Below are positions 11,428 to 14,399 of a DNA stretch of 15,728 nucleotides, piece after piece. Below the pieces are notes generated by a model. The model was not told the DNA's origin and made no database searches. It was given only the letters and a program-made list of their open reading frames with translations. This stretch comes from a virus (taxonomy: Duplodnaviria > Heunggongvirae > Uroviricota > Caudoviricetes), in IMG/VR virus record IMGVR_UViG_2740892229_000020. One strand, given 5' to 3'. Both the position numbers and the translations under genes were made by a program. Each line of letters opens with the position of its first letter. Position 1 is the first letter of the stretch.

Positions 11428-11510
11428 TGAATTGGCCTGAAGCATTCACCGCAGTTGGAGTTGCAATAGCGGTGGCATTTATTCTGTATTCGCTTTTCCG
11501 CTGGGGATAA
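11424..11510 (+). CDS. Small hydrophobic peptide (28 aa), predicted single transmembrane helix
   Basis: Strong Shine-Dalgarno AGGAGG (11414-11419) 4 nt upstream; ATG overlaps the upstream stop (ATGA). MMNWPEAFTAVGVAIAVAFILYSLFRWG. Below the ORF-track size cutoff. Confidence 0.5.
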   Translation: MMNWPEAFTAVGVAIAVAFILYSLFRWG

Positions 11511-11514
11511 AGGA

Positions 11515-11757
11515 ATGTTCGCTCTGATTCAACGTGGTCAGATATACACGGACAGAGCCGGATACCCTGTGGTGATTACTCGCAGTACTCAGCACTCAGT
11601 GTTCTTTCGACGCATGGACGGGCGCTCCGGACGGGTACGCATTGGTGAGTTCAACAACCTGTTCGAACATATTGACCAACAGGAGTACCGCAAAATTCTG
11701 GCGGGCACTGAGCAGGAAATGCGCCTGAAAAAATTACGCGCAATGCAACGGAGGTGA
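11515..11757 (+). CDS. Hypothetical protein, 80 aa (possibly DUF4222-like)
   Basis: Complete ORF in the early-left gene string; MFALIQRGQIYTDRAGYPVVITRSTQHSVFFRRMDGRSGRVRIGEFNNLFEHIDQQEYRKILAGTEQEMRLKKLRAMQRR. Family call is a weak recollection. Confidence 0.55.
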   Translation: MFALIQRGQIYTDRAGYPVVITRSTQHSVFFRRMDGRSGRVRIGEFNNLFEHIDQQEYRKILAGTEQEMRLKKLRAMQRR

Positions 11758-11783
11758 TACATGCATACGGCTTTTGAGTTCTG

Positions 11784-11793
11784 NNNNNNNNNN
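11784..11793. other. Run of 10 N (assembly gap or masked junction)
   Basis: Interrupts an ORF that begins at ATG 11761 (MHTAFEF…) and resumes in-frame sequence after the run. Confidence 0.95.
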
Positions 11794-11794
11794 A

Positions 11795-11878
11795 GAAGCC
11801 AAAGATAAAATCATCGCTGAGCAGGAGAAAATCGCTAACGGAGAAAAGACAGTAAGTCAGTATATGAAAACCGCATGA
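11795..11878 (+). CDS. 3'-terminal fragment of a hypothetical gene (possibly ea8.5-like), probably the same gene that starts at 11761 before the N run
   Basis: In-frame …EAKDKIIAEQEKIANGEKTVSQYMKTA ending at TGA 11876-11878. The ea8.5 assignment is positional only. Confidence 0.35.
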   Translation, partial: EAKDKIIAEQEKIANGEKTVSQYMKTA

Positions 11879-11933
11879 TATCATCAGATAAAAATCGGTC
11901 GTAAAGCGAAATATTAATACCAGAACAAACGAG

Positions 11934-11957
11934 TCGAGGTAAATTATATTACCTCGA
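11934..11957 (-). terminator. Candidate terminator hairpin downstream of the minus-strand membrane-protein gene
   Basis: Perfect 9-bp inverted repeat TCGAGGTAA (11934-11942) / TTACCTCGA (11949-11957) with a 6-nt loop; a U-rich tract follows on the minus strand (CTCGTTTGTTCTG). Confidence 0.35.
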
Positions 11958-11991
11958 TAAATTAACTAAAACTTGCCCGCTATATACTATA

Positions 11992-12594
11992 TCATTCAGT
12001 ATCATCACGCGCGGTCTGTGCATATGTCACTACCGCACCTAATATATTAATTTTCTTTTCAACATAGATAATATTATCGTACTCATAATTGCCATACGGA
12101 TAGCAAATGCGAATATTCTCATGTAGTTCGGGGTCATCCACCTCAGCTCCAGAACAACTTTTTGAACTACCGGAAGTATACCGATACGGTGCAACATAAG
12201 ACGATGTCTCTCCAGGCAAAAAATAAGTTAGTGTCGTAAGGGGTATAATCAGAAAAAATCCAGCAAATATGCACATCCCTGCATAAACCTTAAGGTATGC
12301 TGACAGACTCTTCCAGCCTCTTTGTTTTACTATCCCCTTCTTAACCCAAAACAGAGATAACAGAAAAGCTATTCCCATGCTAAACAGAATGTAATAGTGG
12401 GATATACTCTGATTAAGAAACGTGACCCTGTAGATATCTGCCCGCCACCAGAAGAAAAGGAAAATAAAGATCAGCCCTGAAACTGTCATGCAAATCAAAT
12501 AAGGATACGAATCTTTTTTCATGTTTAGCGCCCATAAAATTTTTCCTGACCCGGACAAATTTACCATCCATTTTTTGCGCAGAAAATAGCTCAT
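11992..12594 (-). CDS. Predicted integral membrane protein (about 3 TM helices plus a C-terminal soluble domain), AT-rich reverse-oriented accessory gene
   Basis: Minus-strand ORF of 200 aa (176 aa if the start is the internal Met at 12520-12522). Hydrophobic segments YLICMTVSGLIFIFLFFWW, YYILFSMGIAFLLSLFWV and VYAGMCIFAGFFLIIPLTTLTYFL. Opposite orientation to all surrounding phage genes and markedly AT-rich. Confidence 0.6.
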   Translation of the reverse strand: MSYFLRKKWMVNLSGSGKILWALNMKKDSYPYLICMTVSGLIFIFLFFWWRADIYRVTFLNQSISHYYILFSMGIAFLLSLFWVKKGIVKQRGWKSLSAYLKVYAGMCIFAGFFLIIPLTTLTYFLPGETSSYVAPYRYTSGSSKSCSGAEVDDPELHENIRICYPYGNYEYDNIIYVEKKINILGAVVTYAQTARDDTE

Positions 12595-12836
12595 TACTTA
12601 CTGCACAATAATACACAAAATTGCGTAAATTTTTTGCATGGATTTTAGCTCTTTCAGCCGAAATTTAAGGGGTAAATAGCATTTCCTAAAAGCAACTGCA
12701 CCAACCCAACAGAATGGGCTACCGCTTACGTTGAGAGCAAAAAAGTGTATAGCAGCAATGAACAGCATCCTCGCACTGACGAGGATTTCTTTTATCTGAA
12801 CTCGCTACGGCGGGTTTTGTTTTATGGAGATGATAA

Positions 12837-13004
12837 ATGCACTTCCGAGTCACAGGTGAATGGAATGGAGAACCATTCAACAGAGTTATCGAAGCCGAGA
12901 ACATCAGCGACTGCTATGACCACTGGATGCTGTGGGCGCAGATAGCACATGCAGACGTAACCAATATTCGAATTGAAGAACTGAAAGAACACCAAGCCGC
13001 CTGA
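12837..13004 (+). CDS. Lambda orf55-like small protein (55 aa) just upstream of xis
   Basis: GGAGA 7 nt upstream of ATG 12837; MHFRVTGEWNGEPFNRVIEAENISDCYDHWMLWAQIAHADVTNIRIEELKEHQAA; followed by a terminator hairpin. Below the ORF-track cutoff. Confidence 0.55.
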   Translation: MHFRVTGEWNGEPFNRVIEAENISDCYDHWMLWAQIAHADVTNIRIEELKEHQAA

Positions 13005-13017
13005 TGGCGGTTTTTTC
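12994..13017 (+). terminator. Rho-independent terminator after the orf55-like gene
   Basis: Stem AAGCCGCC (12994-13001) / GGCGGTT, loop TGAT, then a T-tract (13011-13016). Confidence 0.6.
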
Positions 13018-13043
13018 TTGCGTGTAATTGCGGAGACTTTGCG

Positions 13044-13262
13044 ATGTACTTGACACTTCAGGAGTGGAACGCACGCCAGCGACGCCCAAGAAGCCTTGAA
13101 ACAGTTCGTCGATGGGTACGCGAGTGCAGGATATTCCCTCCTCCGGTTAAGGATGGAAGAGAGTATCTGTTCCACGAATCAGCGGTAAAGGTTGACTTAA
13201 ATCGACCAGTAACAGGTAGCCTTTTGAAGAGGATCAGAAATGGGAAGAAGGCGAAGTCATGA
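13044..13262 (+). CDS. xis: Excisionase Xis (72 aa)
   Basis: MYLTLQEWNARQRRPRSLETVRRWVRECRIFPPPVKDGREYLFHESAVKVDLNRPVTGSLLKRIRNGKKAKS matches lambda Xis; overlaps the int start by 23 nt as in lambda. Confidence 0.92.
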   Translation: MYLTLQEWNARQRRPRSLETVRRWVRECRIFPPPVKDGREYLFHESAVKVDLNRPVTGSLLKRIRNGKKAKS

Positions 13263-14310
13263 GCGCCGGGATTTACCCCCTAACCTTTATATAAGAAACA
13301 ATGGATATTACTGCTACAGGGACCCAAGGACGGGTAAAGAGTTTGGATTAGGCAGAGACAGGCGAATCGCAATCACTGAAGCCATACAGGCCAACATTGA
13401 GTTATTTTCAGGACACAAACACAAGCCTCTGACAGCGAGAATCAACAGTGATAATTCCGTTACATTACATTCATGGCTTGATCGCTACGAAAAAATCCTG
13501 GCCAGCAGAGGAATCAAGCAGAAGACACTCATAAATTACATGAGCAAAATTAAAGCAATAAGGAGGGGTCTGCCTGATGCTCCACTTGAAGACATCACCA
13601 CAAAAGAAATTGCGGCAATGCTCAATGGATACATAGACGAGGGCAAGGCGGCGTCAGCCAAGTTAATCAGATCAACACTGAGCGATGCATTCCGAGAGGC
13701 AATAGCTGAAGGCCATATAACAACAAACCCTGTCGCTGCCACTCGCGCAGCAAAATCAGAGGTAAGGAGATCAAGACTTACGGCTGACGAATACCTGAAA
13801 ATTTATCAAGCAGCAGAATCATCACCATGTTGGCTCAGACTTGCAATGGAACTGGCTGTTGTTACCGGGCAACGAGTTGGTGATTTATGCGAAATGAAGT
13901 GGTCTGATATCGTAGATGGATATCTTTATGTCGAGCAAAGCAAAACAGGCGTAAAAATTGCCATCCCAACAGCATTGCATGTTGATGCTCTCGGAATATC
14001 AATGAAGGAAACACTTGATAAATGCAAAGAGATTCTTGGCGGAGAAACCATAATTGCATCTACTCGTCGTGAACCGCTTTCATCCGGCACAGTATCAAGG
14101 TATTTTATGCGCGCACGAAAAGCATCAGGTCTTTCCTTCGAAGGGGATCCGCCTACCTTTCACGAGTTGCGCAGTTTGTCTGCAAGACTCTATGAGAAGC
14201 AGATAAGCGATAAGTTTGCTCAACATCTTCTCGGGCATAAGTCGGACACCATGGCATCACAGTATCGTGATGACAGAGGCAGGGAGTGGGACAAAATTGA
14301 AATCAAATAA
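13240..14310 (+). CDS. int: Tyrosine integrase Int (lambda-type), 356 aa
   Basis: Full-length match to lambda Int (MGRRRSHERRDLPPNLYIRNNGYYCYRDPRTGKEFGLGRDRRIAITEAIQ… catalytic region …HELRSLSARLYEKQISDKFAQHLLGHKSDTMASQYRDDRG). Confidence 0.95.
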   Translation: MGRRRSHERRDLPPNLYIRNNGYYCYRDPRTGKEFGLGRDRRIAITEAIQANIELFSGHKHKPLTARINSDNSVTLHSWLDRYEKILASRGIKQKTLINYMSKIKAIRRGLPDAPLEDITTKEIAAMLNGYIDEGKAASAKLIRSTLSDAFREAIAEGHITTNPVAATRAAKSEVRRSRLTADEYLKIYQAAESSPCWLRLAMELAVVTGQRVGDLCEMKWSDIVDGYLYVEQSKTGVKIAIPTALHVDALGISMKETLDKCKEILGGETIIASTRREPLSSGTVSRYFMRARKASGLSFEGDPPTFHELRSLSARLYEKQISDKFAQHLLGHKSDTMASQYRDDRGREWDKIEIK

Positions 14311-14399
14311 TGATTTTATTTTGACTGATAGTGACCTGTTCGTTGCAACAAATTGATAAGCAATGCTTTTTTATAATGCCAACTTAGTATAAAAAAGCA
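14311..14399. other. attL: P' arm with arm-type sites, and the 15-bp core TTAGTATAAAAAAGC (14385-14399) at the prophage-host junction
   Basis: Reverse complement of 14368-14399 reads GCTTTTTTATACTAAGTTGGCATTATAAAAAAGC, which contains the lambda att core GCTTTTTTATACTAA followed by P'-arm sequence. The sequence beyond 14399 (…AGCAGGCTTCA…) matches the attB B-arm flank upstream of ybhC. Confidence 0.85.

Follow-up and report, generated by a model that had tools for sequence, protein, structure and literature searches.

Genomic setting of the block

The window, that is the whole stretch of 15,728 nt analysed here (Caudoviricetes record IMGVR_UViG_2740892229_000020), covers the left arm of a lambdoid prophage that has inserted at att-lambda. 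Just before orf55, xis and int it carries a block of low GC content with a membrane-protein gene on the minus strand. The features discussed below are:

11794..11878, plus strand: 3' remnant of an ORF, its translation ending in EAKDKIIAEQEKIANGEKTVSQYMKTA at the stop codon; it travels with the block
11934..11957, minus strand: perfect 9-bp hairpin (11934-11942/11949-11957, 100% complementarity), then CTCGTTTGTT
11992..12522, minus strand: CDS of the 176-aa membrane protein, read from M25, the conserved start within the annotated 200-aa ORF (11992-12594)
12523..12594, minus strand: leader/promoter region, annotated by PGAP as the first 24 codons
12558-12566, minus strand: extended -10-like element TGGTAAATT, 44 nt 5' of the ATG
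12598..12768, minus strand: 56-aa ORF, 'putative membrane protein' in phages 434 and mEp332
12601..12637, minus strand: decayed A-tract and three 10-bp TTGTGC repeats (TTGTGCAnnn), GCAAAAAATTTACGCAATTTTGTGTATTATTGTGCAG in the window; the repeats occur in L006, L014 and L023
12638..12748, minus strand: diverged remnant of a P2-like portal-to-hotspot (cos) intergenic region, aligned with L014, L065, L049 and L006
12767-12786, plus-strand terminator: tL4 hairpin (tL4 is annotated in M60848)
12798-12817, plus strand: second terminator hairpin
12837-13004, plus strand: orf55
13044-13262, plus strand: xis
13240-14310, plus strand: int
14384-14398: att core GCTTTTTTATACTAA
from 14445, beyond the att core: host gene ybhC

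All recognisable neighbours, from exo through int, lie on the plus strand, which agrees with the opposite orientation that the initial annotation had ascribed to the gene. Upstream these are exo (YqaJ domain), a Dam methylase, a TraR-type zinc-finger protein and an Ea22-like protein; other genes upstream on the same strand encode a dATP/dGTP pyrophosphohydrolase-DUF551 fusion and a DUF4222 protein. GC content is 0.36-0.41 across ∼11700-12750 as against 0.47-0.51 on both sides, and the value for 11879-12766 is 0.378 versus 0.475 in the left flank and 0.46 in the right one. The AT-rich block proposed at 11880-12720 is thus real in composition, but its limits have to be redrawn: the mosaic and compositional block is wider than the gene and runs from ∼11794 to 12766 (∼0.9 kb), its left end adjoining a masked N-run (11784-11793). 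Homology to lambda picks up exactly at the tL4 hairpin (12766), which is the right-hand edge of the variable slot. Rfam models gave no match over 11500-13300.

Distribution among lambdoid phages and E. coli

Among 50,697 phage records the whole block was found only in phage 434 (two records), 2B8 (two records) and mEp332, while the adjoining tL4/orf55 flank is common to 249 records, of which these five alone have the block. Lambda lacks the block and has ea8.5 in its place, directly before tL4/orf55/xis in the pL operon region; ea8.5 points in the direction of pL, does not encode a membrane protein and bears no sequence relation to the gene. In E. coli the block is present at 95-100% identity in 905 of 5,426 complete genomes (about one in six), with O104:H4 outbreak strains, 55989, ETEC E24377A and Shigella sonnei among the carriers.

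To the left of the N-run, the window and 434/E24377A diverge completely, with a DUF4222 gene in the former and a TraR gene in the latter. Given this divergence and the lambda junction at tL4, the block lies between recombination junctions in different backgrounds. The ORF remnant at 11794-11878 is closed by an upstream TAA in 434/E24377A and is fused in the window, across the N-run, to an ATG at 11762; a search for its source returned no match beyond the same five phage records. A moron, in the sense of Hendrix and Juhala, is an autonomous extra gene in a phage genome. Two marks of such a gene are present here: patchy presence with sharp mosaic junctions (a varying one on the left), and deviating base composition. 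The view of the gene as an accessory cassette inserted between the early-left genes and orf55/xis thereby stands, as it does in the comparison with lambda.

Coding sequence and start codon

A minus-strand ORF is indeed present at 11992-12594, and its translation is the one originally reported. The gene itself, however, is most likely 11992-12522 and its product 176 aa rather than 200 aa, since all 14 homologues (43-78% identity) start at the methionine that corresponds to residue 25 of the longer ORF, and since the frame 5' of M25 is closed within 1-18 codons, without a start codon, in every other copy. Both the 200-aa start in RefSeq and the 188-aa start in the 434 record are probably wrong. 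The window has an intact CDS, as do hundreds of genomes in which it is 96-100% identical, and dN/dS between lineages is 0.10-0.17; the gene is therefore under purifying selection. Natural short forms of 112 aa, consisting of TM3 and the C-terminal barrel, also exist. One is an internally started, 5'-truncated E. coli allele found on at least 1,000 contigs, the other a diverged representative with its own N-terminus.

Predicted architecture of the protein

Kyte-Doolittle hydropathy finds hydrophobic segments at residues 29-52, 64-85 and 98-127 (200-aa numbering) and a hydrophilic stretch in the C-terminal 75 residues. The AlphaFold2 model, built from a 23-sequence alignment (pLDDT 87, pTM 0.74), contains three helices (5-29, 38-61 and 70-101), with residues 34-36 as a short strand between the first two, and a beta domain of five strands (105-171), which reaches pLDDT 90 when modelled alone. 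The two agree on the layout first suggested, about three hydrophobic helices followed by a soluble C-terminal domain. This domain of ∼75 aa is predicted to be a five-stranded OB-like beta-barrel.

C123, C140 and a CSGA motif do not vary among the 23 sequences of the alignment, nor in another 13 orthologues from chromosomes, and the invariant motifs are retained down to 33% identity. The TM1-TM2 loop, which contains the modelled strand 34-36, is conserved as well (I30, R32, T34, F35, L36). Charges are distributed unevenly, with six positive and no negative residues in the TM2-TM3 loop and a net acidic C-terminal domain (6+/12-). By the positive-inside rule and the cysteine pair, the topology is probably N-in/C-out, with the TM1-TM2 loop and the barrel on the periplasmic side; the predicted cytoplasmic loops are short (5 and ∼18 residues). 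A lipoprotein signal was considered and rejected, as C11 is unconserved and there is no lipobox.

Promoter-like and terminator-like signals

The initial annotation had given the gene its own upstream region and a downstream hairpin, and both were recovered. Upstream, the element TGnTAAnTT stands 44-47 nt before the ATG and is invariant in five diverged phage-borne copies, including those of E. coli and Salmonella P2-like prophages; similar elements can be seen by eye in the Enterobacter hormaechei copy (TGATAAGTT) and in a Cedecea chromosomal copy (TGGTAAGTT). It is consistent with a promoter of the extended -10 type and a leader of ∼30 nt. No sigma-70 -35 element is evident near it, and the consensus scan omitted TGnTAAnTT itself. 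The hairpin at 11934-11957 begins 35 nt 3' of the stop codon and was scored as terminator-like on the minus strand; with its weak T-run it is a candidate for a weak intrinsic terminator of the cassette. In the E. coli P2-like copy the stem is retained, by eye, with one compensatory change from A-T to G-C, one wobble and one mismatch, and in the Salmonella copies only GGTAA/TTACC is left of it. Because the cassette is antisense to pL transcription, we infer that it would be expressed in the lysogen, where pL is repressed, and suppressed in lytic growth.

Searches for known relatives

An exhaustive HMM scan of 1.84 billion representatives yielded only 61 proteins, ∼30 of them full length, and all named members of the family belong to Enterobacteriaceae. 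With the protein and 23 family members as queries, Pfam and NCBIfam gave no family above noise at E <= 0.5-1, exclusion, immunity and holin families included, and PADLOC-DB 2.0 gave no significant match (best E-value 0.43, to generic TM effector models). The protein likewise has no match among colicin and microcin immunity families. The sole match in PHROGs is phrog_1416, a family of unknown function, which spans the C-terminal 88 aa. A profile search of PDB sequences returned no matches and a structure search of BFVD nothing under E = 1e-3; the full-length model finds only generic helix-bundle folds, while the nearest fold neighbours of the barrel, all weak, are small extracytoplasmic proteins of the DUF1093/YxeA type. 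Homology to P22 SieA was rejected, since the hhalign probability is 0.2% and the SieA motif FxRYPxEAxxFNK is absent from the sequence. The papers examined on 434, mEp332 and prophage defence contain no report on the gene or a homologue, and its peptide strings are absent from the portions searched of the supplements of Rousset 2022 (part of the tables) and Vassallo 2022.

Homologues in the P2 gpQ-gpA hotspot

Homologues of six lineages are carried by P2-like prophages, next to cos and flanked by the portal gene Q on one side and the replication gene A on the other, while the copy in the window belongs to a lambdoid prophage. The six, all in the gpQ-gpA slot, are:

E. coli P2-like prophage, 78% identity
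Salmonella, two lineages, 70% and 58% identity
Enterobacter hormaechei, 58% identity
Klebsiella michiganensis, 55% identity
metagenomic scaffold, 49% identity

This slot is the cos-proximal locus of P2 old and tin, and the homologues are transcribed away from cos, as P2 old is. The P2-borne copies have a GC content of 0.38-0.44 versus 0.52-0.56 in their flanks. Their neighbours vary from case to case (StbA/StbB, YafO, an AAA_16 pair or small unknown ORFs), so that the gene is a one-gene unit. Viral contig L065 has lost all of the gene but its first 40 nt, which stand with the promoter in front of other cargo, a remnant that shows turnover at the hotspot. The gpQ-gpA locus is a documented hotspot of anti-phage systems (Rousset et al. 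2022, PMC9122126). Partition systems and a cytolethal distending toxin are found there too, as examples of cargo without a defence role, and defence was found in only three of eight newly tested systems (PMC9122126).

A remnant of the P2 cos region and the origin of the block

The window and the P2-borne copies have 113 nt 5' of the ATG in common, and the similarity to P2-like phages extends beyond the gene. An exact-pattern scan of IMG/VR for the triple TTGTGC repeat found it in at least 120 viral contigs, with a P2 portal gene ∼430 nt upstream in 85 contigs and gpA downstream in 59; the 40 nt after the repeats differ in 61 of 89 cases. Since the portal gene lies upstream and variable sequence follows, the repeats are a backbone element of P2-type phages at the portal/cos edge of the hotspot. 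They had been considered as an operator or activator site specific to the cassette; this was rejected, as the same triple repeat stands in at least 85 P2-like contigs with unrelated cargo. The CII-dependent promoter of the 434 record (12605-12618 in the window) was rejected too: TTGY-N6-TTGY occurs three times in the window versus ∼4 expected, and the site is itself part of the TTGTGC repeats.

From 12748 down to 12601 on the minus strand, the window is a diverged copy of the whole P2-like portal-to-hotspot intergenic region, a segment that belongs to P88-like Peduoviridae. The remnant has an internal deletion of 84 nt (junction 12658|12657). The deleted stretch starts with GCTGTTCCCCCGTCACC, which would correspond to the cohesive end of P2 (GTGCTTTCCCCGCCTCGCC in reverse complement). 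This finding also bears on the 56-aa ORF, which was considered as the second gene of a two-gene system and rejected, as its frame runs through decayed non-coding P2 cos DNA. It starts inside the tL4 hairpin without usable ribosome-binding spacing, its only matches are to the non-coding intergenic region of P2-like contigs, and PGAP makes no call; it is probably spurious.

A decayed P2 cos flank upstream of the gene means that the cassette came from a P2-like phage. On sequence grounds it is well supported that the lambdoid block (∼11900-12748) was captured from such a phage in circular or prophage form and that the cos core was lost later; the captured piece comprised the cos flank and the first hotspot gene. 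To our knowledge, capture from a P2-like into a lambdoid phage with a disabled foreign cos site has not been described.

Chromosomal orthologues

Other members of the family are chromosomal, with host-like GC content and no phage genes nearby. A syntenic locus in at least seven Enterobacter species, found across the Enterobacter cloacae complex, adjoins genes for a GGDEF protein and an AI-2E-family transporter; its orthologues are 63-97% identical, their neighbours 82-98%. The chromosomal orthologues are vertically inherited and evolve faster than their neighbours, at 63-86% versus 82-98% identity. A second syntenic locus is shared by Cedecea and Pseudescherichia, and single loci were found in Klebsiella sp. 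and in Citrobacter portucalensis, in the latter between a DUF1294 gene and rstB-tus-fumC. Such orthologues suggest that the protein may have a cellular envelope role borrowed by phages, and they fit such a role at least as well as defence, which counts against reading the gene as an exclusion factor.

Possible function

The explanation we favour, tentatively and at somewhat less than an even chance, is that the gene encodes a phage-exclusion factor which is expressed in the lysogen and acts in the envelope, at the inner membrane's periplasmic face. The block is a moron, taken up by a lambdoid phage of the 434 type from the first position of the cos-proximal gpQ-gpA hotspot in a P2-like phage, the slot in which P2 itself has old and tin; part of the P2 packaging-site region came along and has lost its core since. 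The 176-aa inner-membrane protein, with a predicted cytoplasmic N-terminus, three TM helices and a predicted periplasmic disulfide-type barrel, would be made from its own promoter, active while pL is repressed. The target of the barrel might then be the route of entry at the inner membrane, or some part of a heterologous phage as it arrives (its tail tip, tape measure or ejection proteins), so that genome delivery would be blocked and the cell not killed. The initial annotation had thought of superinfection exclusion or abortive infection, and this idea gains indirect support because the homologues lie in the defence hotspot of old and tin. The protein has no homology to a known defence or exclusion protein, and non-defence cargo occurs in the same hotspot, the latter of which speaks against exclusion.

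The gene could instead be a lysogenic-conversion gene for an envelope accessory factor that is unrelated to phage entry and was borrowed from Enterobacteriaceae chromosomes, for example for protection against a periplasm-acting bacteriocin, tailocin or antimicrobial peptide, or for a stress or colonisation function. This is the main rival, and we regard it as possible, if on the unlikely side. The syntenic orthologues with host-like GC in Enterobacter, Cedecea/Pseudescherichia, Klebsiella and Citrobacter argue for it, as do the DUF1093/YxeA-type neighbours of the barrel, weak as they are, and the virulence and maintenance cargo that the P2 hotspot holds too. However, no colicin or microcin immunity family, nor any Pfam family, matches the protein, and the phage copies are AT-rich and lie exactly in two accessory slots of prophages, of which one is that of old/tin; the chromosomal orthologues moreover outpace their neighbours in divergence, as defence genes also do.

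A small polytopic membrane protein in a defence hotspot might also be an abortive-infection effector of the RexB, 2TM or 4TM type, which would sense infection, depolarise or permeabilise the inner membrane and kill the cell; membrane proteins of known systems are often suicide effectors (PMC9122126). This seems improbable for a single gene whose product has no cytoplasmic sensing domain, its predicted cytoplasmic loops being short, with no conserved partner gene among neighbours that differ in every context, and with no match to the PADLOC effector models. Abortive infection is also less likely than superinfection exclusion because the sole soluble domain is predicted to be periplasmic. Still more improbable, to our mind, is the reading of the block as a passenger without function, left by recombination with a P2-like phage and tolerated among the lambdoid early-left genes. 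Debris in the block (the decayed cos region, the 3' ORF remnant, the spurious ORF), the turnover scar of the same gene in L065 and the widespread 5'-truncated 112-aa alleles in E. coli would suit it, but it is hard to reconcile with a CDS intact in hundreds of genomes, with motifs that stay invariant in distant homologues and with a conserved promoter-like element; purifying selection makes it unlikely.

Comparison with known systems

Were the protein an exclusion factor, its closest parallel would be SieA of P22, an inner-membrane protein of 162-164 aa with three TM helices and its own promoter, which blocks DNA injection (PMC10883804). The two are alike in being single prophage genes oriented against their neighbours, in size and in the three predicted TM helices, and the injection block by SieA is non-abortive (PMC10883804). 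SieA differs in that its motif FxRYPxEAxxFNK is predicted to be cytoplasmic and that it has no beta-barrel domain. Moreover, it is confined to P22-like phages, between genes 16 and 9, whereas the 176-aa gene occurs in P2-like phages, lambdoid phages and chromosomes.

With P2 old and tin the homologues share the cos/gpQ-gpA slot and transcription away from cos, but Old, a cytoplasmic ATPase-nuclease, and Tin, which is annotated as blocking growth of T-even phages and acts in the cytoplasm, are unrelated to them in sequence and are not membrane proteins. T4 Sp, T4 Imm and HK97 gp15 are small proteins of the inner membrane and work at its periplasmic face to stop genome delivery, as the 176-aa protein would. 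The 112-aa short forms, with one TM helix and the barrel, resemble the T4 Sp-type layout of one anchor and a periplasmic domain. No Pfam family of such proteins was matched, and the fold has no specific relative.

Implications

The kind of element described here is familiar; the family itself is uncharacterised. That the family is a new periplasm-facing exclusion family, in which a three-TM anchor carries a disulfide-bonded OB-like barrel against heterologous injection apparatus, that it was shuttled between chromosomes, the P2 hotspot and lambdoid phages, and that loss of the P2 cos core was selected, is a combination that we hold to be unlikely as a whole. In that case, a live P2 cos in a lambdoid genome would be open to cutting or hijacking by the terminase of a co-resident P2-like phage.

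Two corrections of annotation follow from the analysis: the RefSeq start codon is probably wrong, and the 56-aa gene of phage 434 is probably not a gene. If the protein excludes phages, it would represent a new exclusion family without relatives among the known ones, carried by about one in six complete E. coli genomes and present in the textbook phage 434. Whatever the protein does, the block is a clean and datable case of gene flow from P2-like phages (Peduoviridae) to lambdoid ones, in which part of a foreign packaging site came along, and it shows that genes from the P2 defence hotspot can be put to use by phages of a different family.

Repeats and junctions of the block

At the edge of the hotspot (the cos-proximal gpQ-gpA locus of P2-like phages, where relatives of the cassette gene are found), P88-type phages carry an A-tract and then three exact 10-bp TTGTGC repeats, ∼430 nt past the portal gene (IMG/VR loci L027-L146). 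Two further P2-like (P88-type) loci show the same arrangement:

L006 5894-5926: A-tract and triple TTGTGC repeat
L014 5891-5923: A-tract and triple TTGTGC repeat

The equivalent place in P2 itself holds TAATGCACCT-like 10-bp repeats. Such repeats may be terminase-binding (cosB-like) sites; we found them annotated nowhere. In the window the TTGTGC repeats are decayed and are bracketed by a 26-nt direct repeat with 73% identity and a spacing of 59, which is probably a by-product of A-tract/GCAAAAAAT motifs. A run of Ns falls exactly on the block's left mosaic junction and masks the sequence there. The pattern search for CII sites had as its positive control the canonical site of the pI promoter, just 5' of xis. 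These window features are:

11762-11878 (+): 38-codon ORF spanning the N run
11784-11793: N run, 10 nt
12570-12595 and 12629-12654: 26-nt direct repeat
13018-13031: TTGCGTGTAATTGC, CII site of pI

Other copies and a short allele

A copy of the block with 99% identity to that of E. coli, including the 56-aa ORF and the ORF remnant, lies on contig JARKOR010000073.1 (L148; 3.5 kb). This contig was assigned to a 'Candidatus Nanosynbacter' bin and is almost certainly a binning contaminant. The related prophage of E. coli E24377A is mosaic and therefore probably defective. Its replication genes are followed on the right by IS66 and DLP12-like genes:

L004 1-4700: ybcK pseudogene, ylcJ, emrE and ren

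The 112-aa allele P0075, in the cluster of family member P0039, is a 5'-truncated form of the P2-borne gene that starts with GTG at VKQSGW and retains only TM3 and the barrel. At least 1,000 E. coli contigs carry it, and it may be either a short form that still functions or a widespread pseudogene.

Cargo beside the homologues and possible silencing of the cassette

Homologues in P2-like prophages are accompanied by other genes:

L015-L017 2281-5623: cargo adjoining the homologue, Klebsiella michiganensis
L005/L007/L008 5227-5888: two small ORFs (81 and 119 aa) ahead of the homologue, Salmonella

The K. michiganensis cargo comprises two proteins, one of 790 aa that weakly matches AAA_16 (STAND-like) and one of 279 aa for which no Pfam match was found; the pair is a candidate two-gene defence system. 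The Salmonella ORFs, likewise with no Pfam match, are present in some hotspots but missing in others (L006), and are probably cargo separate from the homologue.

Within the cassette region, one motif shares bases with the right arm of the hairpin 3' of the gene:

11954-11963: TCGATAAATT

It equals the consensus reported for high-affinity H-NS sites (Lang et al. 2007), and the AT-rich cassette may be subject to silencing by H-NS.
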